From an uncultured Verrucomicrobiae bacterium (GTDB taxonomy: Bacteria; Verrucomicrobiota; Verrucomicrobiia; Chthoniobacterales; UBA10450), in assembly GCA_963834385.1 (NCBI GenBank), contig CAWIBO010000002.1, forward strand, positions 576,001 through 640,000: DNA of 64,000 nucleotides, written 5' to 3'. The position numbers were made by a program, and so were the translations under genes. Under the pieces are notes generated by a model. That model searched no databases. It had not been told where the DNA came from and saw nothing but the letters and a program-made list of their open reading frames with translations. This document shows positions 32,980-52,403 of the stretch, piece by piece (the first letter of the stretch is position 1; every line of letters starts with the position of its first letter).

Positions 32980-33645
32980 ATGCTTGATTACATCCAGAAG
33001 GGCGGTCTGCTGATGTGGCCGATCCTGGCCTGCAGCGTCATCTCGGTCGCAATCTTTGCCGAGCGCCTTTTCTATTTTCATCGCGCCTCCATCCATGTGG
33101 GCGAGTTTTTGCAGGGTCTGGCCAACCTGCTTCGGCGCCGGAATTTTGCCGAGGCGCTGCACGAGTCGGCCGGAACGCCGGGCCCGGTGGCGCGGGTGAT
33201 CCACGCCGCCATCATCCATCACGAGGCGCCGCGAGGAGAACTGCGTGAGATTGTGCAGGAAGCGGGGCAACTGGAAGTGCCGCGGCTGGAACGTTACTTG
33301 AGCGTCCTGGCGACCCTGGCGTTTCTCACGCCGTTGCTCGGGCTCCTCGGAACCGTCTCGGGCATGATCGACGCCTTCAGCACCATCATGGCGCGCGGCG
33401 GTTACGCCACCGTGACCGAGCTTTCCGGCGGGATCTACCGGAGCCTGCTCTCGACCGCGGCCGGCCTGGTCGTGGCCACGCCCACCTTCGTGGCCTACAA
33501 TTATCTTTCCGCGCGCGTGAACCGGATGATGCACGACATGGAACGCGCCGGAATCGAGGTGGTGCATCTGCTCACGGAACGCGATCATCCCACGGACATC
33601 ATCTCCTTTACGCCCGCGCCGCGGGTGCGTGACGGGGAAAAATAA
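32980..33645 (+). CDS. exbB: MotA/TolQ/ExbB proton channel protein
   Basis: GGLLMWPI, PLLGLLGTVSGMI, STAAGLVVA. Confidence 0.9.
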   Translation: MLDYIQKGGLLMWPILACSVISVAIFAERLFYFHRASIHVGEFLQGLANLLRRRNFAEALHESAGTPGPVARVIHAAIIHHEAPRGELREIVQEAGQLEVPRLERYLSVLATLAFLTPLLGLLGTVSGMIDAFSTIMARGGYATVTELSGGIYRSLLSTAAGLVVATPTFVAYNYLSARVNRMMHDMERAGIEVVHLLTERDHPTDIISFTPAPRVRDGEK

Positions 33646-33656
33646 TTCCGGGGCGC

Positions 33657-34058
33657 GTGAAAATCGAACGCACAAGCCAGATTCATTTCGGCTGGCTCCT
33701 GCTGGTCCCGCTGATCGACATCCTTTTCCTGCTCATCGCCTTCCTGCTTCTCTCCTCGAACTTCCTTCTCCAGCCCGGCATTGCGGTAGCCGCCCCGGTT
33801 TCCTCCTTCCTGCTCGCCCCGCAGCCCAACCAGGAAATCATTTCGATCACCGGCGGCGCGCCCGCGGCAATTTACTTTCGCGACCAGCGCGTCACCACCG
33901 AACAGCTCCAACGCATGCTCGAGGAGACCCGCCAGGCCGGCCGGCCGGTCGTGATCAAGGCGGATCGCCTTGTCCCCTACGAGGAAGTGATGCGCATCAG
34001 CAACCTCGTCCTCTCGCGCGGGATCTCCTCGGTTTCCCTCGCCACCACCCCGCCGTGA
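33657..34058 (+). CDS. exbD: ExbD/TolR protein
   Basis: PLIDILFLLI TM helix with the conserved Asp; VIKAD..VPY. Confidence 0.88.
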   Translation: MKIERTSQIHFGWLLLVPLIDILFLLIAFLLLSSNFLLQPGIAVAAPVSSFLLAPQPNQEIISITGGAPAAIYFRDQRVTTEQLQRMLEETRQAGRPVVIKADRLVPYEEVMRISNLVLSRGISSVSLATTPP

Positions 34059-37629: not shown

Positions 37630-38106
37630 TTATTTCGTGTCGGCGAAGATCGGCGCGCCTTCGATGTCGCTGGCATCGAACTTGAAGCCATGTCCGCCGC
37701 CGTTGGCCGCGAGCGTCTTCAGGAGCTGCGCCACGTTCTGCGCGGCGGAGGAAGAGTAAAACCGGACCAGGCCCACGGTGGTGCGCCGGCCAAAGACCGT
37801 GATCATGATCGTGTCGTCGTCGACCGAGTTCATGAAGATGTGATTGCCGTTTCCCTGGTGGTAAAGAGCGTTGAACTCCACCTCGCCGATCCGGCGGGCC
37901 AGTTCCTTGGTCGCGGCAAACGAACCCGCCGCGAGCGCAGCAATGATGGTCACGTCCATCACCGTCATGTCGCCAAACTGGGAGATGACGTTGCCGCCCC
38001 GGTCGATCACGACCGTCAGTTCCGCCTCCGCTTTCTTCAGGAAATCGCCGAGGACGCCGTCGAGCGTGGCGACATCCTCGATGGTCAGACAGGGAATCGC
38101 GTTCAT
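37630..38106 (-). CDS. mglB: MglB, roadblock/LC7 GAP partner of MglA
   Basis: Start MNAIP at 38106; IDRGG, AALAAGSFAATKELARRIGE.EF..LYHQG and TVGLVR align with Myxococcus MglB. Confidence 0.9.
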   Translation of the reverse strand: MNAIPCLTIEDVATLDGVLGDFLKKAEAELTVVIDRGGNVISQFGDMTVMDVTIIAALAAGSFAATKELARRIGEVEFNALYHQGNGNHIFMNSVDDDTIMITVFGRRTTVGLVRFYSSSAAQNVAQLLKTLAANGGGHGFKFDASDIEGAPIFADTK

Positions 38107-38753
38107 ACGCCGGCCCCCTGCCTGGTCCCGCTTTCCGCCCGGGGCGGACCGCTGGCGGCCTCCCCCTGCTTGCTGAACTTGTGCAGGAGCACCTGCGAGA
38201 CCGCATTGAGCGCGGCGAAAACATTCTGGCCCGTGCTCGAAACCACCTCGAAACTCTGCACCCGCCGTTTCCGGTTGTTCAGCACGTACTCCATGTAATT
38301 GACCGGCGCGATGTTCGGGAGATCGCGTTTGTTGTACTGGAGGACGTAGGGAATATCGTCGATCGAGACGTTCTGCTTGGCCAGGTTGTCCTCGAGATTC
38401 TTGAAGCTCTCGACGTTCTCCTCCATCTTTTCCCACTGCGAATCGGCCACGAAGACAATCCCGTCCACGCTCCGGAGCACGAGCTGGCGGGTGGCGTTAT
38501 AGATGACCTGGCCCGGCACGGTATAGAGCTGGAACTTGGTCACGAACCCCTTGATCACGACCGCGTTCAGCGGCAGGAAATCGAAGAAAAGGGTGCGGTC
38601 GGCCGCGGTGGCCAGAGACACAAGGTCGCCCCGGTTTTCCGGGCTGATGCGCTGGTGAATGTAACCGAGGTTGGTGGTCTTGCCGCACAGCGCCGGACCG
38701 TAATAGACGATCTTGAACTGAATTTCGCGGCTCGCGTAGTTAATGATGGACAT
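38103..38753 (-). CDS. mglA: MglA small GTPase (group 1)
   Basis: INYASREI.FKIVYYGP.LCGKTTNL, DRTLFFDFLP (Arg finger), YTVPGQ, FVADSQ, YNKRDLP. Confidence 0.95.
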   Translation of the reverse strand: MSIINYASREIQFKIVYYGPALCGKTTNLGYIHQRISPENRGDLVSLATAADRTLFFDFLPLNAVVIKGFVTKFQLYTVPGQVIYNATRQLVLRSVDGIVFVADSQWEKMEENVESFKNLEDNLAKQNVSIDDIPYVLQYNKRDLPNIAPVNYMEYVLNNRKRRVQSFEVVSSTGQNVFAALNAVSQVLLHKFSKQGEAASGPPRAESGTRQGAGV

Positions 38754-40695
38754 GAGCAGTCTCCGGTTGCGAGTAGATCGCGGATAATTCCTTCACCATG
38801 GTGGCGAGCTCCTCGCGGATTCCCGTCGCGAGTTCACCGGCGGCATGCAGGGCGGCGAGGCAGATGTTTCCGTGCATGAAAAAGCTGACGGTCGAGGACG
38901 CGCCGTGCAGCGTCATCGCCTGAAATTCTCCGAAACGGGTCGCGACCATATGGGTGGCGACCTTCTGGAGCAGCGTTGGTGCCATCGCGCAAAGTCCTTC
39001 CGCCTCCAGTTCGTCGGGCAGGTTGCCCGCCAGGCTCAGGCCGTCCGCAAAGGAGATCGCGCAGGCTTTCACCCCGGCCAGCCCGCTCGCTTTCGCCACC
39101 ACTGCCTTGGCGTCCAGGCCCTCGGTTTTCGGCGCCGGGGCGGGCGTGGCCTTGGGGACGGGCTCGGTCGACGGCTTCTTTTCCGCCAGGACGGGCAGAG
39201 CCGGTTCTTTCGCGACGACCGGCTGGGTCGGCGAAGCCGTCAGCATCGGCGGCGTTTCCCGGGCGGGAGGAACGGGCGCGGGTGCCGCGGGCAGGCTCGG
39301 CTTCTCCACCTTCGGCGCGGGCGCAGCGGGAGCACCGCCACCGCTGAACCGCTTCGCATCCTCTTCGGCCGCGGCCGAGAACGGGGTGGCAAAGGTCTCG
39401 CCCTGGACCGATTCCTCCTGGTCGTCGCGCATTTTCAGCGTGGCCGAGGGGAGATTGATCAGGACTTCCTGCAACGGGAGCATGACCGGGGCGGAATTGT
39501 CCTCCGCGACAAAATATTCCCGGTATTCGGCAGGCAATCCCGCAGCGAAAACTTCCGGGGAAACCGAGATCTTTCCAGTCACCAGTTGCGGCTCGACCAG
39601 GGCGAGACCGATCTCAAACCTGGCTTCGGCCGGCACCGTGCCGGGATCACCTTTGCGCTGGAACTCGAGCAGATTCTCCAGCACCGCGCGCAGGCTGAGG
39701 GTGATCTTGCGGTCGTCCTTCGGCGCCGGGGTCAGGGCGACGGGCGCGGGCCCGGCTGCGTCGGCGCGCGGGCGCGCCGCCTCGCTCGGCGCCGCGATCT
39801 TGAAGGGAATGCGCGCCGGACCGCCGGCGGCCGCTTTTGAATCCACCGTTGGGACGGACGGCCCGCTCGAGGCTGGAACTATCTCGGGGGCGGACACGCC
39901 CGTCCCGTTCGGTGGAATTTGGAAAGCGATGCGCGTGGGGGCGGCCGGAGGATCGACCAGCGAAACGCGGCGCGGGGCGGCGGGAACGCTGGGTGCCTTC
40001 ACCTTGAGGGCGGCGGCGGCCGACTCCGGTTGTGCCTTGGCAATCGACTCGGCCGTGGCCGGCTCGAGGCAGACCGGCGGCATGTCCGAGGTCTCGATCG
40101 GCTCGTTCGGCAGCCCGAAACGTTTGTTGTCCTCGAGGGTCACATTCAGGAAGGGTGTTTCCACCTGCGGCACCATCTGGTCGCGGACCTGGTCGCGCCG
40201 GATCTTCATGTGCGAGAACGCCTCCAGCACTTTCTGGAACGGCAGCACGATCATGGTCGGGTCGGTCGGCGCGATCGTGCGCAGGAAAACTTCGGGCATC
40301 TGCCGGTGGATACTGGCGAGGGAGGCTTCCGGTTTGCCCGCGGCCATTCCCTTCTCGACTTCCGCGGCCTTGAACAGGACCGGCCGTTTCCGGTCGAGAC
40401 TTTCGATGGGCTTGGCCACGCCTTCCGGGAAAAGGGGATGTATCTCGGAGAGCGGAAGGGAGAGAACGCGCTCCACCCGCGGCTCGAGCGCGAGGGCCAC
40501 GGCCGGCGGAATGCCGCGTGATTCCTGGGCGCGCCCTTCGCCGTTTTCGCCGGGAGGACGAACCGCGCTGGGGAGGACGGTCTTGCTCAGCCGTTCGCTT
40601 TCCGGCTTGGTCGCCACGAGCGGCGGCGGAGGCTCCGCCACGGCCGCCGCGGTCTTCGGGCCGCGCTTGAAGAGATGCAGAAAGGGGATCGTCAT
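38740..40695 (-). CDS. Pro/Ala-rich protein with a duplicated ~120-aa domain and C-terminal roadblock/LC7 domain
   Basis: Internal repeat LPxQxVL..KxRxDQ..TPF..EDxKRF occurs twice; C-terminal GVKACAISFADGL..AEGLCAM roadblock pattern; overlaps the mglA start. Confidence 0.75.
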   Translation of the reverse strand: MTIPFLHLFKRGPKTAAAVAEPPPPLVATKPESERLSKTVLPSAVRPPGENGEGRAQESRGIPPAVALALEPRVERVLSLPLSEIHPLFPEGVAKPIESLDRKRPVLFKAAEVEKGMAAGKPEASLASIHRQMPEVFLRTIAPTDPTMIVLPFQKVLEAFSHMKIRRDQVRDQMVPQVETPFLNVTLEDNKRFGLPNEPIETSDMPPVCLEPATAESIAKAQPESAAAALKVKAPSVPAAPRRVSLVDPPAAPTRIAFQIPPNGTGVSAPEIVPASSGPSVPTVDSKAAAGGPARIPFKIAAPSEAARPRADAAGPAPVALTPAPKDDRKITLSLRAVLENLLEFQRKGDPGTVPAEARFEIGLALVEPQLVTGKISVSPEVFAAGLPAEYREYFVAEDNSAPVMLPLQEVLINLPSATLKMRDDQEESVQGETFATPFSAAAEEDAKRFSGGGAPAAPAPKVEKPSLPAAPAPVPPARETPPMLTASPTQPVVAKEPALPVLAEKKPSTEPVPKATPAPAPKTEGLDAKAVVAKASGLAGVKACAISFADGLSLAGNLPDELEAEGLCAMAPTLLQKVATHMVATRFGEFQAMTLHGASSTVSFFMHGNICLAALHAAGELATGIREELATMVKELSAIYSQPETAHVHH

Positions 40696-40696
40696 C

Positions 40697-42415
40697 CTAA
40701 TGGTCCTCCGCGGTCACGCGCCAGATTTCCTCGAGCGTGGTGACCCCTTCCATGGCCTTGTCGATGCCGACCATGCGGAGGGTTTTCATTCCCTCGGTCA
40801 CGGCCTGGTTCTTGATCACCGTGGCGGACGCCCGCTTAATGATGAGACGGCGGACGGACTCGCTCACCGGCAGCGCCTCGATGATGGCGGCGCGCCCGAG
40901 ATAGCCCCGGTTCTTGCAACGGTCGCAGCCGCTGCCCTGGTAAAAAATCTGGTCGGCGTTCGACTGCAGCCCGAGGCGTTCCATGATCTCCGGCCCAGGC
41001 TGGAACTCTTCACGGCAGTTCGTGCAGATGCGGCGGACAAGACGCTGGGCGCAGGTCAGGATGATCGAGCTCGAGATCAGGAACGGCTCGATGCCCATGT
41101 CGTCGAGACGGGTGATGGCGCCGGCGGCGTCATTGGTGTGCAGGGTGGAAAGGACCTGGTGACCGGTCAAAGCCGCTTTCACCGCGATGTCGGCGGTCTC
41201 GTTGTCACGAATTTCACCGACCATGACGATGTCCGGATCCTGACGCAGAATGGAGCGAAGGGCGGAAGCGAAATCGAGGCCGATGTCGTTGCGCACCGCC
41301 ACCTGGTTGATACCGGTCAGCTCGTACTCGATCGGGTCCTCGACCGTGACGATGTTATACTGCGGACTGTTCAGTTCCTGCAGGACGGAATAAAGCGTGG
41401 TCGTTTTGCCGGAACCGGTGGGACCGGTCACAAGGATCATCCCGTGCGGGGCGTCGATCGCGGCCTTGAACTTGGCCACAGTCCCCTCGTCCATCCCCAT
41501 CTGGTCGATGCTGCCGGTGAGCGCCGACTTGTCCAAAATACGGATAACGATCTTCTCGCCGTAGGCCGTGGGCAGAATGGAGATACGCAGGTCGACTTCC
41601 TTGCCCAGGACCTTGATGCGAAAACGGCCATCCTGCGGGATGCGGCGCTCGGCGATGTTCAGGCCGGCCAGAATCTTGATGCGGGAGGTGATGGCCAGTT
41701 GCAGACCCTTGGGCGGGGATTCCGCCGCGATCAGTTCGCCATCGATGCGGTAGCGCAGCTTGAGGGAGCGCTGGAAGGGCTCGATGTGGATGTCGGACGC
41801 CTTTTCCTTGATCGCCTGGACCAGGATCAGGTTGACGATCTTGATCACCGGGGCCTCTTCCGTGCCGGCGGCCAGGCGGTCGATGTCGATCTCCTCCCGG
41901 CCGGCGTTCTCCACTTCGACGCCGTCGCTGCCGACCTCGTCGGCCACCTGCTTGAGCATGTCCTGCATGTTGGCGCCGCCGCCGTGCGCCCCGGACAGGG
42001 CATCGGTGACCGCGCGCTCGGTCGCGATCATCGGCACCACTTCCATCTGGACCCGGCGCTTTACGTCGTCGATCGCGAGGACGTTGGTCGGGTCGGCCAT
42101 GGCCACGAAGAGCTTGCCGTCGAGGCGGGCAATGGGGACGAGCTTGTTCGTCTTCGCCATTTCCCGGGGCACGAGCGACAGCACGTCCTCGGGGACATGC
42201 AGCTTGCAGAGATTGATCGGGGCCGTGTTCAGGCAACGGCCCATGCTGAAGACCATGTCCTGCTCGGTGACAAAATGCTTGTCGGTCAGGATCTTGAGCA
42301 GTCGGCCGCCCTCGCTCTGCTGGATGCCGATCGCTTCCTCGAGCTGGTTCGGCAGGAGGAGACCGTCCTCGATCAGGACGTCGGCGATGCGTTCTCCGAA
42401 AGATTTGCTTCTCAT
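40697..42415 (-). CDS. pilB: PilB/GspE family extension ATPase
   Basis: MshEN-like N-terminus; ASDIHIEP, PQDGR, GPTGSGKTTT, TVEDPIE, LRQDPD, GHQVLSTLHTN, CxxC..CxxC. Confidence 0.92.
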   Translation of the reverse strand: MRSKSFGERIADVLIEDGLLLPNQLEEAIGIQQSEGGRLLKILTDKHFVTEQDMVFSMGRCLNTAPINLCKLHVPEDVLSLVPREMAKTNKLVPIARLDGKLFVAMADPTNVLAIDDVKRRVQMEVVPMIATERAVTDALSGAHGGGANMQDMLKQVADEVGSDGVEVENAGREEIDIDRLAAGTEEAPVIKIVNLILVQAIKEKASDIHIEPFQRSLKLRYRIDGELIAAESPPKGLQLAITSRIKILAGLNIAERRIPQDGRFRIKVLGKEVDLRISILPTAYGEKIVIRILDKSALTGSIDQMGMDEGTVAKFKAAIDAPHGMILVTGPTGSGKTTTLYSVLQELNSPQYNIVTVEDPIEYELTGINQVAVRNDIGLDFASALRSILRQDPDIVMVGEIRDNETADIAVKAALTGHQVLSTLHTNDAAGAITRLDDMGIEPFLISSSIILTCAQRLVRRICTNCREEFQPGPEIMERLGLQSNADQIFYQGSGCDRCKNRGYLGRAAIIEALPVSESVRRLIIKRASATVIKNQAVTEGMKTLRMVGIDKAMEGVTTLEEIWRVTAEDH

Positions 42416-42427
42416 GGTCTTCCGGGT

Positions 42428-43327
42428 TTAGGCACGCGATTCCAGGCGGTAGATATCCTGGAGCGACTTCACGATGGCGCCCGGGCGGGCCAGGTACCAC
42501 GAGACCGTGTAATCAAGCGACTGCTGGACGGCCTCGCGGCCCTCCACGTCAAAAGGATTGCAGCAGGCCACCATGACGGTGCGGCTGATCAGGTCGAAAG
42601 GGATAAAGAGGCGCCCAAGAGTGAGATGATCCGGGAGCATGCGCGCGAGCTGGCGATCGACGTCGTAATACTCGAGGGGCACATAGGAGAACTTGGTCCG
42701 GTCGATCACGGCCGAGAGGATCCGGTCGAGGCGATCGGTGTCCTGGCGGCAGACTTTTTCCAGGAGCGAGGCGGCCATGGCCTGCCCACTCAGGTCCTTG
42801 TTCAGGTGTTTGGTGGTGTCGAGCGCCTTGGAGACTTCGTCCTCGGGGGCAAGCTGTTGCACGATAAGAAACTTGGCCAGCTGATCGTCGCCCCGGTCCT
42901 GGAGGTCGTGGGAGCGGTTGGAGCCGCGGCCGCCCGGCTCAAGAAGCGAACCGTTGGCGTCGTAATTATGCTGCACCATCAGACCGGTCTTGGGGCCGGG
43001 CGTGGCCGAGATGGAGTGGCCGGCGGCCTGGAGCCGGGACTCGATTTCGCCCAGCATGGCGAGGATCTCGGGAGCGTTCGGCTCTTTCAGGAGCATGGCC
43101 TCGCATTCCTGCAGGGCGAGGGAATAGGAACCGACGTTGTAATAGGCCTCGGCCAGCTTGCGCGAGACCCGCAGATATTCCTCCTGCCGGCCGACCTTGT
43201 GATAGGCCTCCTTCAGGATCTCGAGAGACTGATAGTCGTCGGGTTGTGTTTGAGTGATGACCTCAAACATCTCGATCGTCTGCAGAATCTGACTATGTTC
43301 CTCGTCGGATAACGTGTGTTCCAGCAC
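42428..43327 (-). CDS. TPR protein fused to an ATPase-less PilB/GspE N-terminal domain
   Basis: N-terminal TPR-like helices; C-terminal YVPL...LARMLP...IPFD...VACCNPFD mirrors the PilB N2 domain; start placed at GTG 43327 (43375 also possible). Confidence 0.7.
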   Translation of the reverse strand: MLEHTLSDEEHSQILQTIEMFEVITQTQPDDYQSLEILKEAYHKVGRQEEYLRVSRKLAEAYYNVGSYSLALQECEAMLLKEPNAPEILAMLGEIESRLQAAGHSISATPGPKTGLMVQHNYDANGSLLEPGGRGSNRSHDLQDRGDDQLAKFLIVQQLAPEDEVSKALDTTKHLNKDLSGQAMAASLLEKVCRQDTDRLDRILSAVIDRTKFSYVPLEYYDVDRQLARMLPDHLTLGRLFIPFDLISRTVMVACCNPFDVEGREAVQQSLDYTVSWYLARPGAIVKSLQDIYRLESRA

Positions 43328-43342
43328 AGCGTGGCCACTAAA

Positions 43343-43358
43343 AGCTAGAAGTGTGCCC
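43343..43358 (-). promoter_or_regulatory. Putative sigma-54 promoter of the TPR-pilB-mgl operon
   Basis: Minus strand GGGCAC-ACTTC-TAGCT keeps GG-N10-GC and lies ~15 nt before GTG 43327. Confidence 0.5.
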
Positions 43359-43514
43359 CTAAGGTCGGCCGCCACGGTAAATCGCCCAGGGTCGCCCGAT
43401 TTTCACGGGGAACCGGTGAGCGCGCCGGCTCCGGCGACGACCCAAAAAAAGACCGGCCACCTGAACTTTCAGGGCTTACAGCCGGCCAAAATCAGGTAAA
43501 GTAGCCACCCGCCC

Positions 43515-44021
43515 GTGACCTGCCCTGTCCGTCGTCAAACCGCGCCCCGCGCCGCCGCTTTCACCCTCATCGAGGTCATGGTGGTCATGGCCATCATCGC
43601 CATCGCGCTGGGGTTGCTCCTGCCGGCGCTGACGCCGACCACCGCCCGCGCGGTCGACGGCGCGACCCGCCAGTTTTTGTCCGACCTGGAAACGGCTCGC
43701 CTGAGCGCCATTTCCAGCCGCACGCACACGCGCATCGTGGCGACGCCACAAACCTACCAGGTCTCCGTCCTGAACCGGGCCACCGGAAATTGGGAGACGA
43801 GAAGCAAGACGGTGCGGTTCCCCGATGGAGTGGCGTTTGACCCGCCGCCGACGCTGGAGTTCCTCGCCAATGGCAGCACCAGCCTTGATCCGGCGGCAAC
43901 ACCGCACCCCGTGATCATTCGCGATGCCGTGGTTGCCGGCGCCACCGTGGTGGCAAAGAATGCCAGCCTGGTCCGGCGCATCGAAATCGATCCGCTCACG
44001 GGCGGCGCCATTCTCAGGTGA
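43515..44021 (+). CDS. Prepilin, FimU/GspH-like (Verru_Chthon cassette D-like)
   Basis: Class III signal A|FTLIEVMVVMAII; ARLSAIS; LEFLANGS; IEIDPLTG. Confidence 0.85.
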   Translation: MTCPVRRQTAPRAAAFTLIEVMVVMAIIAIALGLLLPALTPTTARAVDGATRQFLSDLETARLSAISSRTHTRIVATPQTYQVSVLNRATGNWETRSKTVRFPDGVAFDPPPTLEFLANGSTSLDPAATPHPVIIRDAVVAGATVVAKNASLVRRIEIDPLTGGAILR

Positions 44022-44452
44022 AGCACTTCAACCGCGGCTTTTCCCTGATTGAGGTTGTCCTCGCCCTCGGCGTGGTCAGCTTTTCCGTGCTCGCGCTGCT
44101 CGGACTGCTGGTGGTCGGCAACGAGACAAACAAATCTGCGCGTGATGAAACCATGGCGGCGCAACTGGCCGCCAACGAATTTGCGCGCCTGCGCTCCCTT
44201 CCCGCCGCGACCTTCCCCACGGTCTACCAGACCCGTTTCTTCAACAATCAACTGAGGGACCTGGGGACAAGTAAGAGCTCCGCAGTCGGGCAGGGAGCGG
44301 CCTACGAGTTTCGCGTGAACATCGTCACCCCCGCTGCGCCCGCTCCGGCTGACCGGGTTTTCAACGCCGAGGTGCGGTTTCCCGCCGCGGCACCTGACAA
44401 CAATCAAACGGTCTATCGTTTCACCACCTTGATGAATCTTCCCGCCTCATGA
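44018..44452 (+). CDS. Prepilin, PilV/GspI-like (Verru_Chthon cassette B-like)
   Basis: G|FSLIEVVLALGVVSFSVLALLGLL. Confidence 0.85.
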   Translation: MKHFNRGFSLIEVVLALGVVSFSVLALLGLLVVGNETNKSARDETMAAQLAANEFARLRSLPAATFPTVYQTRFFNNQLRDLGTSKSSAVGQGAAYEFRVNIVTPAAPAPADRVFNAEVRFPAAAPDNNQTVYRFTTLMNLPAS

Positions 44453-45171
44453 AGACGAGAGCTTTCACCCTGGTGGAGTTGCTGATTGCGCTCACCATTA
44501 CCGTGATCCTTGTGGTGCTGCTGGCGAGCGCAGTCTCGGCCGCGCTGGGCATGTGGCGGCAGGGGCGAAATCGAATCGACACTTTCCAGGTCGCCCGGCA
44601 GGTCCTTCTGCGCATCGGCGACGAACTGAAAGGCGCGCGGGCCATTCCAGGCCGCCTGCAATTTCTGGAAAACTCGCCACAGTTGGGCGCCGGCGCCGCC
44701 TACGCCACCACGAACCATGAAAAGGAGAACTGTTTCTTCGTCGGCCCCTATCCCAATTTGCAGAATGGGGATCTTTGCGTTTTTGCCTACCGCCTCAACG
44801 TCGAGACCCTTGAACTGGAGCGCGCTTTCTTCCCAAGCGCCGACGCCTGGGCTCCCGCATCGGGGAGCCGTTATCAGATCGGAGGCTATACCTACACGAA
44901 CCCATCGACCAGCGCGCCGCTCTGGCATCCGATCGCTCAGGGCATCGTCGATTTCGAGGTGCGCGCTTTCGACGTCGATGGGCATACCATTATTTCCCCG
45001 TGGGACTCGCAGACGCAGGGACGCGCCCCGAAGCGAGTCGTCATCCGGCTTCGCGCGGTGGACGACACCACCGCGGGCCGGCTCCAGGTTTTGACCGCCG
45101 GGACGCCCGCCCATACCCAGACTTTGCTGGAAGCGGCACGAGAATTTTCCACCGAGATCTGGCTGCCCTGA
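44449..45171 (+). CDS. Prepilin, PilW/GspJ-like (Verru_Chthon cassette C-like)
   Basis: A|FTLVELLIALTI; C-terminal PKRVVIRLRAVD. Confidence 0.85.
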   Translation: MKTRAFTLVELLIALTITVILVVLLASAVSAALGMWRQGRNRIDTFQVARQVLLRIGDELKGARAIPGRLQFLENSPQLGAGAAYATTNHEKENCFFVGPYPNLQNGDLCVFAYRLNVETLELERAFFPSADAWAPASGSRYQIGGYTYTNPSTSAPLWHPIAQGIVDFEVRAFDVDGHTIISPWDSQTQGRAPKRVVIRLRAVDDTTAGRLQVLTAGTPAHTQTLLEAAREFSTEIWLP

Positions 45172-48098
45172 TGCGGACGCAAAAAAACGTTTCTCGTGCG
45201 GGCGTGGCGCTCGCCATCACACTGCTTCTCCTCGCGCTCCTGGCCGTGGTGGTGGTGGCGTATCTTGGCAACACCCGCGGCGACCGTGCCTCCTCAAACG
45301 TCTACGCCAACCGGTTGCGGGCAAAGATGATGGCCGAGTCGGGTCTTTCCGCGGCCACGCATCTCCTCCAGGAACACACCCGCTACGGCAATTACATCAC
45401 GGCGATGCCGGCGCCGACCGCAAGCCCGGCCGCCACGCCGATCAGGACCGAACTCTATCGTCCGCCGAATGCCGATGATTTCCTGACCCTGACCAACGGG
45501 ATCGGCGATGCGCTCGTCTCGCTTGCCACCGGAGGCAGCGGCCCCGGGGCGGATCCAAGGCCGACTCCAGCCACGGTGACGGCAAGCGGCAGCCCGGCAA
45601 GCTGGGGCATCCCCGATCCTGGACTGACCGCCGCGAACAGTTTCGATTTCAACGAGATCGTCCGTGTGGGGTCGAACGCGAACGGGCGGCTCGTGGCCCC
45701 GGGGCTGACCGGGTCGCCTCCTCCGGCCTATGGTCAGTGGGTCAATGTTCGCAATTCAGCCGGGGAATTGACCGGCCGCTATGCCTTCTTCATTGAAGAC
45801 GAAAGCATGAAGGTGAACGTCGATGTCGCAGGAAATGTATCCAGCGCGCGACCGAATGACCTGACGACGCCGGCGCCCACGACGCCTGCGACACAGGTCG
45901 AGGAAGTTGACCCGACCGGCGTTCTCACTTCAACGGCGCGTTCCGGCGCCGCTGCCACGCTCGCGGCCGCAGGCGCTTCCGGCGCCCGTTTTGCCAGCAA
46001 GGCCACGATCGGCCTGGTGCCGCAGTGGGAGGTTGCGGGCGCCGCGCCCAGCCTGGTCGACTACGTTCATCTCATCACGGTCCACTCGCGCGATGACAAC
46101 ACGACGGCGCGTGGCTGGCAGCGGATGAACCTGAACCAGGTGGTTGCGTCCGCCGCGGCCAATAATTCCGCCAAGGCCGGCGCGGCCCAGCAGATCGCTG
46201 ACTGGATGGCCGATGCCTGGACCGGGACAACGAACCTCTCCTCCCTGCAATCGCACCAGGTTTACGGCGATCCGCGGCTGCGGCTCCAGTTTGCCGCCAA
46301 CATTGTGGATTACATCGACGGCGACAACACGCCCACGGATCTCGGGGACATCGGCGGAGTTCCGGTTATTGGCATCGAGCGAATACCCTACCTTGTTGAA
46401 GTCGACGTGATCTATACCGCCGCGCACACTTCGCCGGCGGCGCCCGGACAGGCAGTCATCAGCACCACCATCCGCTTCAACTTTCTCAACATGTTCAATT
46501 CGGATCTCACGCTGGGAGATCATGTCAGCAAAATCCGGGTCAAGGGGATTCCGGTCATCGTCAAAAATGGCGCGGTTGTTCTCGATCGAGAGGCGCAAAC
46601 CTTTGAGCTTACTGTCGGCAGCAGCACCCTTGCCAACGGGGTCATCCCAGCCGGCGGAGATAACTCAGCCAGCGGCGTGGCCGGCGTTAAGACCTTTGTC
46701 TCGCAGGCAATCTTCTCGCAGCAAGTGTCGTATGTCAGCGGAGGCTCGCCCACACAGCTGGAGGCTGGTTTGCTCGAGGTGGAGATGCTGGGGCCAGGTG
46801 ATGAGCGCCTCGACGTGGTCAAGATCGCGCTGCGTGACTTGCAGGCCCGCTACTACAACAGCGGCGGCACAGCACCCAACGATTTTCTGGAGAACCCGAC
46901 CAAACCGCTGGCGACCACTTCCATTAATGCCTCTTATGAGGGCGTGGTCGGACCGAGCGGAACGGTCGTTCCCATTTCCTACGGGGACCCGAGATATCGT
47001 CCCCAGATTCCCACCCGGCGGATGTACAACCTGACCCGAACCGACACCAACCGATTCGCGACCAGCGACGACAAGGCGGAGATCGACTCCCGCGCATATG
47101 CGGTGGATTGGTACGATTACATCGGCAATCGGCCCCTTTTGTTCTTTCGAAACGGCCCGCTCCTGAGCGTTGGCGAACTCGGATTGATCTCCAACTGCGA
47201 GTACCCATGGCGTACTGTGTATTTCCAATATGCCGGGCGTCCGGAGAGCACGGTGGACGCAAATGTGATTCCCTCGGTGCAGGCCCGGCGCGGTTCCTCC
47301 GCCGCCGCGCAGTCGAATCCCAGCCTTCAACCACAGGATTATCTTCTCGCCGACATTTTCACCACGCGCAGCGAAACGACTCGCTCTGGCGGCATTAACC
47401 TGAACAGTCAGACGCATGTCCGAAACACGGCAGGAGCGGTCATACAAGGACCCTTCAATGCGCTCATGCTGGCCACGCCCGTTGGCCCGGTTAGGGATGG
47501 AACCGGCGCCAATATTGGCGGCAGCACCCTTAGCGTTTCCGCCTCCGAGACTCTCAGTACCGGACTCGCCGCACGACGAATCGAATTTGCGCCGGCGGCT
47601 TCCGGCGGCCCCGGCACTTCGGGAAATTCCCCCATCGATAATACTCCCCGTCGCCCTTTCTTTACCATTGGGGAGGTCGCCTCGGTCCTGAGCCGTCACA
47701 TCAATCAAAACAGCATGACACCTCCCACCACGAGCGGGAACGGACGCCAGCGCAGCACGGTGGTTTATAGTCTTCTGCGCGGGACTCCCACCAATCCCAG
47801 CGAGTGGAAACGCGATTATGGAACGGATATGCAGGTGGAGGAGCCATTCCGAAAGATCAGCGACTCCATTACCACGCGGGGCAACGTTTTCCGCGTGCTC
47901 TACGTCGGGCAGGCCATCAAGGATTTGAACAAGGACGGAATCGCGACAGACAATGAAAAGTTCGCCGAGTATCTGGCGGAAGCGTTCGTCGAACGACTTC
48001 CCACCTTTGCTCCTCCGGCCGTGGTCGGAAGCTCCACCGTAATAAAAACATCCGGTTCGAGTTATCGGATCGTTGCGCAAAGGGCCGTCACGGAATGA
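45171..48098 (+). CDS. Large PilX/GspK-like tip pseudopilin (Verru_Chthon cassette A-like)
   Basis: Start at ATG 45171; G|VALAITLLLL without Glu5; AESG, GRYAFFIEDES.KVNV, IVDYIDGD, GGINLN, ITTRGNVFRV..VGQ. Confidence 0.82.
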   Translation: MRTQKNVSRAGVALAITLLLLALLAVVVVAYLGNTRGDRASSNVYANRLRAKMMAESGLSAATHLLQEHTRYGNYITAMPAPTASPAATPIRTELYRPPNADDFLTLTNGIGDALVSLATGGSGPGADPRPTPATVTASGSPASWGIPDPGLTAANSFDFNEIVRVGSNANGRLVAPGLTGSPPPAYGQWVNVRNSAGELTGRYAFFIEDESMKVNVDVAGNVSSARPNDLTTPAPTTPATQVEEVDPTGVLTSTARSGAAATLAAAGASGARFASKATIGLVPQWEVAGAAPSLVDYVHLITVHSRDDNTTARGWQRMNLNQVVASAAANNSAKAGAAQQIADWMADAWTGTTNLSSLQSHQVYGDPRLRLQFAANIVDYIDGDNTPTDLGDIGGVPVIGIERIPYLVEVDVIYTAAHTSPAAPGQAVISTTIRFNFLNMFNSDLTLGDHVSKIRVKGIPVIVKNGAVVLDREAQTFELTVGSSTLANGVIPAGGDNSASGVAGVKTFVSQAIFSQQVSYVSGGSPTQLEAGLLEVEMLGPGDERLDVVKIALRDLQARYYNSGGTAPNDFLENPTKPLATTSINASYEGVVGPSGTVVPISYGDPRYRPQIPTRRMYNLTRTDTNRFATSDDKAEIDSRAYAVDWYDYIGNRPLLFFRNGPLLSVGELGLISNCEYPWRTVYFQYAGRPESTVDANVIPSVQARRGSSAAAQSNPSLQPQDYLLADIFTTRSETTRSGGINLNSQTHVRNTAGAVIQGPFNALMLATPVGPVRDGTGANIGGSTLSVSASETLSTGLAARRIEFAPAASGGPGTSGNSPIDNTPRRPFFTIGEVASVLSRHINQNSMTPPTTSGNGRQRSTVVYSLLRGTPTNPSEWKRDYGTDMQVEEPFRKISDSITTRGNVFRVLYVGQAIKDLNKDGIATDNEKFAEYLAEAFVERLPTFAPPAVVGSSTVIKTSGSSYRIVAQRAVTE

Positions 48099-48841
48099 AA
48101 ATTACTTGTTCAGCGCTCTTTCTCCTCCTTGCCAGCACCGGCCTTACTGTTGCTCAGCAGACTACGGCGGCTGCACCCAAGGTCGTCGAGACCATGCCCA
48201 AGCCCTGGCAGATCGACGCTCCGGCGTCGCAGGACCGGATCGCCATCACCTTCGACCAAAGGATGAGTCCTGCCTATACCGCATGGCTCGGTCGCAGCAG
48301 CGTCGTGGGGGAGGTCGATCTCGATTCGATGATGAGCCCCGACCGGAAGACCTTCAGTCTCAAGGCCAATCTTCAGCCCGGCCGAATCTATGTTTTCGCC
48401 CTGAACGAAAAGAATATCCCTGGAGTCGGTTTCCAGAATGATCAGGGCTTGTCAGCTCCGCCGTTTTTTCTCGTCTTCCAAACGACCGGTGCTCCGCCGC
48501 CGGAGTTGGCGGCACCGCGGGCGGTTTCTACGCTGCCGGCGCATGACACGCAGGCGATTGACCCAGCCCGCTTGAAATCGCTTACGGTCGTTTTTGATCG
48601 ACCCATGGCTTCCAAGAAGCACGGGTTGATCATGACGGAAAACAAGAAGCCGGTCGACCTGAGCAAGGCGCCGTTTCAGTATTCGACCGACGGCAAGACC
48701 TTCACCCTGGCTTATGACTTCAAACCGTCGTCGGTCTACGAGTTCGAGCTGAACAACACGCAGAACATCGGCTTCGCCAGCGCGCAGCGCATTCCGCTCT
48801 GGCCGGTCCGGCTGACCTTTTCCACCGGCCAACCGCAATAG
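48095..48841 (+). CDS. Exported protein with two Ig-like (Big_5-type) domains
   Basis: Signal peptide; repeats PKVVETMP..ITFDQRM..DRKTF and PRAVSTLP..VVFDRPM..DGKTF; ATGA overlap with the cassette. Confidence 0.7.
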   Translation: MKITCSALFLLLASTGLTVAQQTTAAAPKVVETMPKPWQIDAPASQDRIAITFDQRMSPAYTAWLGRSSVVGEVDLDSMMSPDRKTFSLKANLQPGRIYVFALNEKNIPGVGFQNDQGLSAPPFFLVFQTTGAPPPELAAPRAVSTLPAHDTQAIDPARLKSLTVVFDRPMASKKHGLIMTENKKPVDLSKAPFQYSTDGKTFTLAYDFKPSSVYEFELNNTQNIGFASAQRIPLWPVRLTFSTGQPQ

Positions 48842-48853
48842 CGGAGCCAGCCC

Positions 48854-49612
48854 TCAGGCGCTGCGTTCGTCGGCTTTCAGGACCTTGATGGCGTCGCGCA
48901 GCTCGGCGGCGCGCTCGTAGAGCTCGCCGGCGATGGCCTGTTCCATCTCGCGCTCCATTATTTCCAGCCGGCTCAGCGGGCGTTTCGCGCTCACTTCCTG
49001 CAGCCATTCCTCGAGGAAAGCCAGTTCGGAGCTTTTCTGCGCCAGCTCCGGGAAGTTCGATTCAGTGAAGAATTCCTGAATGGTGTCGCGCCCTTTCTCG
49101 ATCTCTTTCATCGCCTCGGCAAAGCGCCCGTCCCCCAGGAGGATCGAGGCCTTGGCCCGCGTGTTCATCATGAGCACATACGGCCGGAACTGCTGGAATC
49201 CCGCCGCCAGATCCTCGCGGCTGCTGTGCTCCGCCACGAAATCAAACAGGTCGAGGTTCCGCTGGGTGTCGCGGATCACCGCCGGAAAATCGTTCAACTG
49301 GAACAGGCTCAGGTAACGATGGTAATACTGGATCCCCTCCTGTTGCAGCTCGCTGCATTGCTCCGGCGTCAGCTCGTAGTCGTCCCCACGCGCCTCCGCC
49401 CGGGCCGCCCGGCGCTGATGATAAACCAGAAGCGACTCCGCGTTATGCGGGCGCTGCCCGTCCGGGCGCCCCTGCATTTCCATCTGCAGCACGCCCAGGT
49501 CGATGCGGAGCTGCAGTTTCTCGCGGCCATCCACGCCCAGGATCTTGCGAACTTTGATCGCGCCCGGTTCATGCGGCCAGTCCTTTAAGAGAGTGCTCAG
49601 GTCGAGGCTCAT
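48854..49612 (-). CDS. Conserved protein with C-terminal UvrB/UvrC (UVR) motif
   Basis: C-terminal MEQAIAGELYERAAELRDAI; N-terminal LQLRIDLGVLQME..GRPDG. Confidence 0.75.
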   Translation of the reverse strand: MSLDLSTLLKDWPHEPGAIKVRKILGVDGREKLQLRIDLGVLQMEMQGRPDGQRPHNAESLLVYHQRRAARAEARGDDYELTPEQCSELQQEGIQYYHRYLSLFQLNDFPAVIRDTQRNLDLFDFVAEHSSREDLAAGFQQFRPYVLMMNTRAKASILLGDGRFAEAMKEIEKGRDTIQEFFTESNFPELAQKSSELAFLEEWLQEVSAKRPLSRLEIMEREMEQAIAGELYERAAELRDAIKVLKADERSA

Positions 49613-49699
49613 GGTTTGTTAGTCATGTTCGGCCACCGCGCGTTCAATTGTCAATCGCGACCGGAGATTGCCGTGGGCCCCCTTTTCGGGGAATCTGCC

Positions 49700-50593
49700 G
49701 TGGTGGAGAAGCAGATCGACGCCTTTATTCGCCATCTCGCGGTCGAACGCGGCCTCTCCCGCAACTACCAGGATTCAACCCGGCGTTCCCTCACGGAATT
49801 CGCGCAGTGGGCCGCCCAGCGCCGCGAAGTGACGCGGCCGCGCGATGTCACCCTCGCCCTGGTGAGCGAATATCTCGGGGAACGGAAACAGGCCGGCCTG
49901 GCCGCTTCCTCCATCAAGCTGGTGGCGGTCGCCCTGAAAATTTTCTTCCGGCACCTCGCCGCGCGCGGCGAAATTCCGCGCGATTGCACCGAAGCCCTGG
50001 CCCTGCCCCGCCTCGAGCGTTACCTCCCGGAAACGTTGAACGAGCTGCAGGTGGAACAGCTCATGGAAAGCGCCGATTCCTCCCAGCCTCTGGGCCGCCG
50101 CAACCGCGCCATCCTCGAGCTGCTCTACGCGAGCGGGCTCCGCATCGCCGAGCTGGCCGGGGCGCGCCTGGAGAATTTCAACGCGGAAGAGCGGATGCTG
50201 CGCGTGACCGGCAAAGGCAGCAAGACGCGCCTCGTGCCGGTGGGCCGGCGCGCCTGCGCCGCCCTGCACGATTATCTCACCGGCGAGCGCCCCGACCTGG
50301 TCCGGCCCCGCAGCGGGAGCGAAATCTTTCTTTCCGCGCGCGGCAGCAGGCTGAGCACGGCCCGGATCTGGCAAATCGTGAAGGAATGCGCCCGCCGGTC
50401 CGGCCTGGAGAAAAACATCTACCCGCACCTGCTCCGCCACAGTTTTGCCACCCATCTCCTCGGGAACGGCGCCGACCTCCGCATCATCCAGGAAATGCTG
50501 GGCCACGCCGACATCTCGACCACGCAGGTCTATACCCACGTGGACCAGCAACGGCTCAAGGCGGTGCACCACAAGTTCCATCCCCGGGCCTGA
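49700..50593 (+). CDS. xerD: Tyrosine recombinase XerD-like
   Basis: ELLYASGLRIAEL, GKGSKTRLVP, PHLLRHSFATHLL, MLGHADISTTQVYTHV, HHKFHPRA. Confidence 0.85.
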   Translation: MVEKQIDAFIRHLAVERGLSRNYQDSTRRSLTEFAQWAAQRREVTRPRDVTLALVSEYLGERKQAGLAASSIKLVAVALKIFFRHLAARGEIPRDCTEALALPRLERYLPETLNELQVEQLMESADSSQPLGRRNRAILELLYASGLRIAELAGARLENFNAEERMLRVTGKGSKTRLVPVGRRACAALHDYLTGERPDLVRPRSGSEIFLSARGSRLSTARIWQIVKECARRSGLEKNIYPHLLRHSFATHLLGNGADLRIIQEMLGHADISTTQVYTHVDQQRLKAVHHKFHPRA

Positions 50594-50648
50594 AGAAAAG
50601 CCGGGCGCCATTTTGCGACCGACGCATCCGGCTTAGATTGCGCGCCTG

Positions 50649-52403
50649 ATGAGACGACTTCTTTTCCTTGCCGCCCTCACGGCCATCGTCATCGCCGCGG
50701 TGTGGTTTTCCCTCCAGGGATCGCAGGCCCACTCGACCAAGGCCATCACCACCCTGCTCCCGCGCGACACCATTGCCCTGGTTTACCTGCCCGATTTCAA
50801 GGAGGCGCGTGACGGCTGGCGGCAGACCGATCTTTACCGGCTCTGGCGTGAACCGGCCATGCAACAGTTCCTGGCCCGGCCGCTCGAGCGCTCGACGCGA
50901 CCAGGGGAGCTCCGGGCCGCCCTGGGACGGCTCGACCAGCTCGGGCTCCAGGCCGTTTTCGCCGCGCTCATCGCCTGGGACAAGGAGGAGCCGCGGTTTG
51001 CCGCCGGTTTTCGTTTCACCGGCGATCGCGCGGAGGTGGAGCAGTTCGTCGCCTCGTTCCGAGACCCGCTCCGCCGCCGGCTCGGCGCCCCGCCGGTCGA
51101 GACGATCGATTACGAGAAGCACAAGATCGAGGTGACGCGCGGAGAGGGAGCCGATCTGCTCGCGACCGTTTACGCTGGCGACTGGTTTTTCCTTTCCAAC
51201 GATCTCCCGCAAATCCAGCGCATGCTCGATCGCGTGGACGGCCGCACGGTGGACCAGAGCACCACCCTGGCGGTGGACAACGATTTCCAGGCGGCTCTCC
51301 GCCACATGCCGCGGCGTTACGCCTGGCTGGCTTATGCGCGCGCCGATCACCTGCTCGCGCGCTTCGCCCCGAAGACGGGTCCGACCGATCTGCGCGCCGT
51401 CGCCGCCGCCCTCGAGTTCGAGGATCGGCGCATGCGCGAGACCCTGTTCGTCGGAAGGCCAAAGGCGCAGGCCGGCCGCAAGCTGCAGCGGGTGGCCCTG
51501 CCGATGGCATCGGCGGACACGTTCCTGCTGGCGACCAGTCTTTTGAACCTCGAAGACAAGGGCGCCGCCTCCGGGCTGCGCACGCTTCCCATACCTTCCC
51601 GGTTCCTCAGCGGGGTGCTCGAGGCGTTCTCTTCACTCGGCCTGAGCGCGGCGGAATGGAAGGAAGCGTTCTCGGCCGAGGCCAGCCTGCTCGGCGAATG
51701 GCAGACCGGCCTGCCCTGGCCCGGTTTCGTCGTGACCGTGCCGGTAAAAAACCGGGAGCGGGCGGAAGCGATCCTCTCCCGGATCACCTCGCGCAACCCG
51801 GAACTGCCCTGGCGCAAGGAGGAGAAAGAGAAGACCACCTTTTATTCCCGCAACCTCTCCGCGGGGCCGATTGCCCTCGCCCCCACCATCGCTCTTTCCG
51901 ACCGCATGCTGGTCATGGCCCAGGACCGGCGCACGGTGGAAAACATGCTCGCCCCGTCCGGTGAGCGGCTGACCTCGACCGCCCTTTTCCGCGCGGCCGA
52001 GCGCACTGTCTCAAAACCTGACACCAGCTTCGTTTTCATCGATCCCGCGCTCTTTTACCGGCGTCTCGATGCGACCATCCGGCCCTTCCTTCTCATGAGC
52101 GCGGCTTTCGTTCCGGCCTTGAGCGAATCGGTCGATCTTTCCAAGCTGCCGGAGGCGGAAATGGTGGCTCAATACCTCACGCCGATCACCCTTTCCCAGC
52201 GCTACGAGAAGGACGGCTACGTCACCGCCTCCGTCGGCCCAATTACACTGTTCCAAGGGGCGGCGGTTGCGATTATCGCCGCGGGCGGCGCCGCGGCCAT
52301 CATGGAGCAACTCACACCGCGCCAACCCTTTCCATCAGGTCAGTCACCCGCCCAGGCTTCTCCTGCTCCCTTGCCACCGACGCCCACTCCGACGCCTCCG
52401 TAA
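50649..52403 (+). CDS. Membrane-anchored hypothetical protein (DUF3352-like)
   Basis: N-terminal TM helix, LLPRDT motif, C-terminal hydrophobic helix and Pro tail; family assignment is tentative. Confidence 0.55.
   Translation: MRRLLFLAALTAIVIAAVWFSLQGSQAHSTKAITTLLPRDTIALVYLPDFKEARDGWRQTDLYRLWREPAMQQFLARPLERSTRPGELRAALGRLDQLGLQAVFAALIAWDKEEPRFAAGFRFTGDRAEVEQFVASFRDPLRRRLGAPPVETIDYEKHKIEVTRGEGADLLATVYAGDWFFLSNDLPQIQRMLDRVDGRTVDQSTTLAVDNDFQAALRHMPRRYAWLAYARADHLLARFAPKTGPTDLRAVAAALEFEDRRMRETLFVGRPKAQAGRKLQRVALPMASADTFLLATSLLNLEDKGAASGLRTLPIPSRFLSGVLEAFSSLGLSAAEWKEAFSAEASLLGEWQTGLPWPGFVVTVPVKNRERAEAILSRITSRNPELPWRKEEKEKTTFYSRNLSAGPIALAPTIALSDRMLVMAQDRRTVENMLAPSGERLTSTALFRAAERTVSKPDTSFVFIDPALFYRRLDATIRPFLLMSAAFVPALSESVDLSKLPEAEMVAQYLTPITLSQRYEKDGYVTASVGPITLFQGAAVAIIAAGGAAAIMEQLTPRQPFPSGQSPAQASPAPLPPTPTPTPP

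Follow-up and report, generated by a model that had tools for sequence, protein, structure and literature searches.

The window analysed here is a stretch of 64,000 nucleotides (C2:576001-640000) whose minus strand carries an operon of five genes coding for a protein that combines TPRs with a copy of the PilB N-terminal domain (TPR-MshEN), the ATPase PilB, a repeat-roadblock protein, MglA and MglB (Table 1). The tight coupling attributed to these genes in the first-pass annotation is borne out by the successive junctions, which measure +12, +1, -14 and -4 nt. Four prepilin-like genes and a gene for a protein with Big_5 domains, all mutually overlapping, lie on the opposite strand, and the first of them starts 187 nt from the operon start, in agreement with the earlier description of four coupled prepilins and an Ig-like gene less than 200 nt away. 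The most likely start of mglB is ATG 38106 (158 aa) and not position 38436 of the longest ORF. The start of TPR-MshEN is most likely GTG 43327, a prediction based on the homologues, which start there, and on the sigma54-type site at 43343-43357, which falls between both candidate starts. No Rfam families were found between positions 37000 and 50000. The hairpin with a T run located 5' of the operon, not evident in relatives, was not retained as a terminator. Named matches belong to Chthoniobacterales/Spartobacteria.

Table 1. Features of the operon, of the neighbouring cassette and of the scattered pilus genes. Positions without prefix refer to the window; C1 to C5 prefix positions on contigs of the genome.
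Feature	Position	Strand	Remarks
sigma54-type -24/-12 promoter site GGCAY-N5-TAGCT	43343..43357	-	motif in 73/76 upstream regions
TPR + degenerate MshEN/PilB-N protein, 299 aa	42428..43327	-	PilB-linked type IVa pilus factor
PilB extension ATPase, 572 aa	40697..42415	-	Walker/His boxes and Cys4 invariant
repeat-roadblock protein, 651 aa	38740..40695	-	two ~125-aa domains, Pro/Ala linkers, C-terminal roadblock
group 1 MglA small GTPase, 216 aa	38103..38753	-
MglB, 158 aa	37630..38106	-	predicted GAP; E 4e-32 to Myxococcus MglB
cassette gene 1, GspH/FimU-like prepilin	43515..44021	+	Verru_Chthon D-like, below cut-off
cassette gene 2, GspI/PilV-like prepilin	44018..44452	+	Verru_Chthon B-like, below cut-off
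cassette gene 3, GspJ/PilW-like prepilin	44449..45171	+	Verru_Chthon C-like, below cut-off
cassette gene 4, GspK/PilX-like, 975 aa	45171..48098	+	Verru_Chthon A-like, below cut-off; putative variable tip subunit
protein with two Big_5 Ig-like domains	48095..48841	+	apparent N-terminal leader
pilM and three following genes	C5:567409
pilQ	C5:235744
pilC	C1:76180
pilT-pilU	C3:176693-178949		two further pilT-family genes in genome
three tandem pilA	C2:810398-811856		plus fourth copy
pilD	C2:686008

MglA aligns end to end with its Myxococcus counterpart (E 1.5e-69). According to the available text of a survey (PMC4316618), group 1 MglA proteins are defined by the Arg finger and the TVPGQ motif, and a small subset of them is coupled to two MglB. 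Both signatures are present here: the Arg finger stands beside the G2 Thr (R53/T54), the G3 motif TVPGQ includes the catalytic Gln (Q82), and these residues are, together with N141/K142/D144, invariant in 48/48 aligned homologues. The initial assignment to group 1, with intact Arg finger and catalytic Gln, is thereby confirmed. The downstream roadblock protein is, as judged from its sequence, a true MglB of the Myxococcus/Thermus type (E 4e-32 to 6h5b, 5e-23 to 1j3w) with a predicted GAP role; MglB switches MglA-GTP off. R115 alone is retained among the surface residues K14/R115/K120 involved in MglC binding.

The proposal that mglA is flanked by two roadblock genes is clear for MglB and also holds for the upstream protein, whose roadblock fold is recognized by a weaker profile match (E 2e-11 to the solved roadblock 7f8f). 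This second roadblock is not a stand-alone protein of ~120 aa such as MglC; it forms the C-terminal domain, aa 520-645, of a 651-aa protein, and its profile match to MglC (7ct3, E 0.09) is weak and poorer than to other roadblocks. With regard to the FDI/KRR surfaces of MglC, the repeat-roadblock protein contains an F-x-D-G-L motif, which may or may not correspond to them. The whole protein gave no Pfam match, the roadblock reaching E 0.03 in the genome scan. It includes two homologous unnamed domains of ~125 aa (aa 73-195 and 326-452, profile match 97%), and 1,897 representatives of this repeat domain were retrieved with an E of at most 0.001, the domain occurring in 2 to 7 copies per protein. 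A roadblock terminates 100/112 of the long repeat-domain proteins, and the distant repeat-bearing protein P0198 displays an N-terminal receiver domain; no genomic contexts were found for the multi-repeat proteins P0191 and P0198. The AlphaFold2 model of the repeat domain (pLDDT 83.6) consists of four short strand-helix units. No sequence match in the PDB and no Foldseek match in the PDB or viral sets was obtained, the best structural comparison among 48,161 chains reached Z 2.3, and the Atlas returned unnamed Verrucomicrobiota clusters only, below 0.9. The domain is thus predicted to fold confidently with no solved match, which does not in itself prove a new fold. The aromatic/basic N-terminus of the protein is conserved in 109/120 sequences; its hydrophobic moment (0.40) is near the background (0.33, 90th percentile 0.52), and a membrane anchor at this end is therefore a lead only. 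Outside the order Chthoniobacterales, the repeat domain was detected near mglA in 5/11 fetched loci, and the repeat-roadblock protein tracks MglA.

PilB polymerises PilA via PilC/PilMNOP/PilQ, and PilT retracts the pilus. The ATPase of the operon has the features of a type IVa PilB, namely a T2SSE ATPase domain, an N-terminal MshEN domain, Cys4 and His boxes, and matches solved PilB better (E 8e-159) than GspE (4e-127). It falls just below both NCBIfam cut-offs, with scores of 632/676 for the PilB model (632.5 bits for a cut-off of 675.65 with TIGR02538) and 626/630 for the GspE model. These nearly equal scores and the H-I-J-K pseudopilin order of the neighbouring cassette would fit a GspE-like secretion ATPase serving either the T2SS or the Amuc_1098-1102 machine, with the switch gating secretion. 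This we hold to be very improbable, given that the T2SS is served by a separate gspD-gspE locus with only 38% identity, that a further pilB-pilB-pilC locus exists, that the closest structures are those of PilB, and that co-occurrence and promoter type track pilA/pilC/pilM/pilT, as detailed below.

MshEN domains that bind c-di-GMP carry a tandem RLG...Q motif. In PilB this motif is altered: RIA replaces RLG, with A11 in 32/33 sequences, and the second half is degenerate. The score with the MshEN model NF053729 amounts to 36 bits for a cut-off of 38. Searches of the genome, which is 89.6% complete, revealed neither a GGDEF nor a CheA dimerisation domain. Neither the tandem motif nor a source of c-di-GMP was detected.

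TPR-MshEN is composed of ~100 aa of TPR followed by the PilB-N/MshEN copy. It was detected in 35/251 genomes of the phylum, 25 of which lack mglA; conversely, 10 of the 14 mglA-positive genomes of the phylum possess it and 4 do not. Among 20 loci fetched from TPR-MshEN genomes devoid of mglA, 13 adjoin pilB and 2 more are near pilM, and mglA was found within none of the 20. TPR-MshEN tracks PilB, not MglA. Its neighbours in these loci designate it as a pilus factor first, and the 25/35 genomes without mglA imply that the type IVa pilus does not need MglA everywhere. They also weaken the earlier suggestion that the TPR protein is an SgmX-like MglA effector. SgmX is described in the available text of PMC11580455 with 14 TPRs in three functional regions, an organization that TPR-MshEN does not share; the same text reports that SgmX binds MglA via three C-terminal TPRs and that a direct SgmX-PilB contact is not known. 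A direct role could nevertheless be envisaged, in which TPR-MshEN would be a three-TPR counterpart of SgmX, receiving MglA-GTP and passing the signal to PilB, with the roadblock protein secondary. The three MglA-binding TPRs of SgmX, the combination of TPRs with a PilB-like N domain in one protein and its presence in 10/14 mglA genomes of the phylum sample speak for this possibility, which we consider somewhat unlikely: TPR-MshEN accompanies pilB and pilMNOPQ in genomes without mglA (13/20 loci beside pilB), and MglA binding therefore cannot be its sole role.

Synteny was established by tblastn and profile searches. MglA is encoded in 42/61 genomes, and loci were fetched from 38/41 mglA-positive relatives, the other three being two unpublished genomes and a case at a contig edge. 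The full gene order is found in 33 of these 38, belonging to several families, and one more is cut by a contig end. Two relatives split the operon, with TPR-MshEN-pilB apart from roadblock-mglA-mglB, and two genomes keep roadblock-mglA before exbB/exbD without TPR-MshEN, so that both halves appear as separable sub-modules; the type IVa pilus was not found in the latter two genomes. The order of the operon is also kept in all 59 loci with room downstream among 80 retrieved with the TPR-MshEN profile, which come partly from the same genomes as the 38 fetched loci. The linkage of pilB with mglA and mglB, expected at first pass for related genomes, is hence observed. Outside the order Chthoniobacterales, mglA is rare (14/251 phylum genomes): in 11 fetched loci, pilB adjoins mglA in two, and one full operon is present. 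The locus L085, from another class, displays a different arrangement of the same link (mglA-mglB-pilB-pilC-(sigma54 activator)-pilA), and in L068 a paralogue precedes pilin-pilT. Across the phylum, complete copies of the operon are thus rare.

These data bear on the possibility that the MglA switch is merely co-transcribed with pilB and acts elsewhere, for instance on an ExbB/ExbD-type motor, on adhesion or on cell asymmetry, while PilB operates independently. The two exbB/exbD loci in genomes without type IVa pilus, the 25 TPR-MshEN genomes without mglA and the absence of a nearby pilB at most mglA loci outside the order are in line with it. The 1-nt and overlapping junctions indicate, on the contrary, a tight coupling; the gene order is kept in 59/59 loci, the pilus genes of L085 and L068 repeat the association, and co-occurrence inside the order is near-complete. 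We accordingly regard an action elsewhere as unlikely.

Family searches combined with the annotation of 11 fetched regions revealed three filament machines in the genome. PilA, PilC, PilM, PilQ, PilT and PilD are all encoded (Table 1), pilN, pilO and pilP being assigned by position, with family matches weak or absent. The first-pass annotation had rightly placed pilC, pilT, pilMNOPQ and pilD outside the window, and they are encoded elsewhere in the genome. Genes of the T2SS are located on C3 (gspD-E) and C5 (gspG-M and gspF), and the Amuc_1098-1102 locus and a frameshifted pilB-pilB-pilC locus on C2. Co-occurrence was tallied over 61 genomes, including the unpublished G002, G007 and G014, and over a subset of 46 genomes at least 90% complete, which also includes G007. 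In this subset, TPR-MshEN agrees with pilM in 46/46, with pilA in 46/46 and with pilC in 45/46 genomes. The agreement of mglA amounts to 43-44/46 with pilM, pilA and pilC, to 30/46 with Amuc_1101 and to 31/46 with the cassette marker, the cassette tally being slightly high owing to weak TIGR02598 matches near gspF in G015 and G023, which are probably gspI. Kin are not independent in such counts; presence and absence recur in several families. The pilT-family genes are near-universal (57/61) and therefore do not discriminate. The pilC gene lies within ~4.5 kb of mglA in 7/39 relatives having pilC. The operon belongs with one scattered type IVa pilus among the three filament machines.

The consensus of promoters recognized by sigma54 consists of GG (-24) and GC (-12) with a spacing of ten bases, and the motif upstream of the operon fits it. 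The motif is located 13-17 nt 5' of the TPR-MshEN start in 73/76 upstream regions. The genome contains rpoN with an activator gene beside it (C2:695909), the product of which matches the activator encoded within the L085 pilus locus better than any other (50%); consensus, rpoN and activator together designate the site, on sequence, as a predicted sigma54 promoter. The genome contains 13 occurrences of the strict pattern, and 10 genes have it upstream, among which are the TPR-MshEN operon, pilT-U and a minor-pilin cluster at C2:253180. With a relaxed score of at least 6, reached by 71/2756 genes as background, pilA is included, and pilC carries a site after start correction; the cassette, Amuc and T2SS genes of the genome do not reach this score. 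In relatives, a score of at least 6 is reached by TPR-MshEN in 73/75 and, for 10 hand-picked relatives per gene, by pilT in 10/10, pilC in 10/10, pilA in 9/10 and pilM in 0/10, the last displaying a constant weaker variant with a score of 5 in 7/10; the cassette reaches it in 1/45. The operon thus shares its promoter type with pilA, pilT and pilC, and transcription by sigma54 is predicted. The pilus reading of the first pass is strengthened in that the remaining parts of a retractable type IVa pilus exist, co-occur with the operon and have its promoter type.

The four prepilin-like genes resemble the Verru_Chthon cassette (TIGR02596/02598/02599/02600), which likewise comprises four coupled prepilin-like genes, one of them coding for a very large K/X-like protein. 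They match the A, B, C and D models with E of 3e-16 to 1e-5, all four below the curated cut-offs, and differ further in being mostly single-copy in the host family and fixed beside the pilB operon. The Big_5 gene is found at the cassette end in 2/40 fetched loci. The cassette adjoins the operon in 21/25 host-family loci with room and in 45/56 loci with room among those retrieved with the TPR-MshEN profile. This adjacency and the usual single copy raise the possibility of one back-to-back system, in which the cassette would provide the priming/tip complex of the MglA-controlled pilus and would be swapped in order to change target. The median identity to relatives, 30-44% for the cassette compared with 68-89% for mglA, mglB, pilB and TPR-MshEN (42% for the repeat-roadblock protein), would fit a surface-exposed tip, and four genomes (G019, G024, G034, G036) keep an adjacent cassette with no Amuc_1101 or Amuc_1098 found. 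Several observations render this possibility improbable. Adjacency is seen in 0/6 loci of other families, and six loci have an empty cassette slot, with 159-218 nt to a uvr-domain gene. The promoter motif precedes the cassette in the single case out of 45 already mentioned. Three- or four-gene cassettes occur in six genomes (G037, G039, G044, G048, G051, G058) where mglA, pilA, pilC and pilM were not found. Two other minor-pilin clusters of the genome, at C2:250627/318611, are PilV/W/X-like with DUF7305, and their PilW-like gene, present in 18 genomes, is restricted to mglA-positive ones (18/18). Finally, unrelated neighbours (the uvr-domain gene, xerD, fabF and guaB) are similarly retained in the host family. 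The earlier view of operon and cassette as one compact module or one system is not supported, given the lack of adjacency in other families, the lack of the promoter motif and the cassettes of genomes where no mglA or type IVa pilus was found. The cassette looks like a hypervariable Verru_Chthon-like neighbour, not part of the operon unit; the T2SS platform, near-universal (57/61 including paralogues), cannot serve to assign it to a machine.

The reading we favour, and judge rather probable, is that the five genes form the operon for motor and control of a retractable type IVa pilus that is transcribed by sigma54 and has its remaining parts scattered in the genome (pilA in three to four copies, pilC, pilMNOP, pilQ, pilT/U, pilD and two separate pilV-W-X clusters), and that it functions through two sub-modules, [TPR-MshEN + PilB] and [repeat-roadblock + MglA + MglB]. 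The first would be a phylum-wide pilus unit in which TPR-MshEN, by means of its copy of the PilB N-terminal domain, would bind PilB and recruit or gate it. In the second, the repeat-roadblock protein would act as a scaffold positioning MglA/MglB, performing the job of Myxococcus MglC plus RomR. MglA-GTP would then license PilB locally, at a single site that is probably a cell pole, with no involvement of c-di-GMP or of a Frz/Che input. The operon probably controls where or when pili form, and the output could be twitching, attachment or cell contact. The cassette would represent a variable set of tip subunits that in the host family sits next to the promoter, and probably mainly the client of another filament machine. 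More tentatively, and with a lesser chance of being correct, a self-contained GTPase-gated pilus of the Chthoniobacterales may be envisaged, in which the repeat-roadblock scaffold, of unsolved fold, would replace RomR/RomX/MglC and pass MglA-GTP to TPR-MshEN, which would gate the motor by mimicking the PilB N-terminal domain. If true, MglA would reach PilB by means of five proteins, independently of c-di-GMP and Che, and polar twitching or contact would be implied for a group regarded as non-motile. Since the candidate links are small proteins encoded together and fall into two separable sub-modules, they lend themselves to well-defined tests of pairwise binding and GAP activity. Across Chthoniobacterales, retractable pili that are regulated as part of a sigma54 regulon are predicted, and the repeat domain offers a confidently folding model without solved relative.

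Literature searches on MglA/MglB, PilB, sigma54 and type IV pili in Verrucomicrobia, in which subscription papers are sparsely covered, returned no description of the operon; those on Verru_Chthon and on Amuc_1098 pilin/type II secretion, with the same coverage, returned nothing, and one on pili and motility of Udaeobacter gave nothing relevant in the available text. Type IV pilus genes were already published for a Chthoniobacteraceae genome, with twitching pili predicted, according to the available text of PMC11596606. The available text of the MglA survey (PMC4316618) places Verrucomicrobia in group 5 only and contains no link with pilB, whereas the operon described here is verrucomicrobial and of group 1. 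MglC connects RomR with MglB in Myxococcus, where PilB is recruited by SgmX through a route that is not known (PMC10329633, PMC11580455, available text); the role of RomRX as GEF has been questioned (PMC13408092, available text).

In comparison with the ATPases MshE and PilF, gated by c-di-GMP through MshEN, the fold is common and is found here both in PilB and in the TPR protein, but with the altered motif, the score below the NF053729 cut-off and no GGDEF domain found, as given above. The polarity module of M. xanthus, which consists of MglA/MglB with SgmX/FrzS/SopA, has in common with the present operon a group 1 MglA with R53/Q82, a true MglB, a second roadblock, a TPR protein and a type IVa PilB. 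Here, however, these functions are gathered in one operon with pilB and no CheA domain was found; the short TPR protein carries a fused PilB-N/MshEN copy, unlike SgmX with the 14 TPRs given in the available text, and the second roadblock terminates a 651-aa repeat protein. The operon resembles the MglC/RomR/MglB complex in a second roadblock beside MglA/MglB and in Pro-rich linkers as in RomR, but the profile matches MglC less well than 7f8f and MglB keeps only one of the three MglC-binding residues. The operon is a variant of the MglA-to-pilus theme, the parts themselves being of known kinds.

The repeat domain found in two copies in the repeat-roadblock protein of the pilB-mglA operon is also carried by larger proteins, with seven copies in a receiver-domain protein of 2283 aa (P0198) and six or seven in a protein of 1465 aa displaying a hydrophobic N-terminus (P0191); a look for the gene surroundings of P0198 and P0191 recovered none. 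The repeat-roadblock protein itself begins with a conserved aromatic/basic stretch, which could tentatively be read as a membrane anchor. Upstream of the operon promoter, a hairpin followed by seven T is present; this element is not evident on comparison with relatives. An additional prepilin precedes the usual four genes in some of the prepilin cassettes (loci L049, L051, L062 and L063), and the genes that lie beyond the cassette slot, from the uvrB/C-motif gene to the DUF3352 gene, are conserved neighbours.

Further pilus-type genes are encoded elsewhere in the genome under study (G000). The pilB-pilB-pilC-gspG-like locus is interrupted by several frameshifts, which may reflect either an assembly error or decay, and a tandem pair of PilT-family ATPase domains forms a single protein of 755 aa. 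Both PilV/PilW/PilX-like clusters contain DUF7305; in the first, PilX is split and there is a strong sigma54-type site, and the second lies head-to-head with a PATR-repeat gene. Within the division cluster of the window, the MurC-like protein of 1076 aa looks like a fusion, because it is matched by two separate genes in locus L088.

Features of the window and of other loci
Location	Strand	Feature
Window 17343-20573		MurC-like protein
Window 32980-34058		exbB/exbD genes
Window 40663-40695	minus	Aromatic/basic N-terminal start
Window 43444-43487	minus	Hairpin, then seven T
Window 48854-52403		uvrB/C-motif gene, xerD-like recombinase, DUF3352 gene
G000:C2:29880-35300 (L008)		pilB-pilB-pilC-gspG-like locus
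G000:C2:250627-253181		First PilV/PilW/PilX-like cluster
G000:C2:318611-321135		Second PilV/PilW/PilX-like cluster
G000:C3:242539-244806 (L006)		Tandem PilT-family ATPase domains
L068:8019-11527		Second mglA of G042

Other gene settings were observed for mglA. The second mglA of genome G042 is flanked by a DUF4388 + FGE-sulfatase gene on one side and by a prepilin-pilT pair on the other. In two genomes (loci L067 and L069), where the type IVa pilus co-occurring with the operon was not found, repeat-roadblock and mglA are immediately followed by exbB/exbD-like genes, and the same exbB/exbD genes are present in the window.
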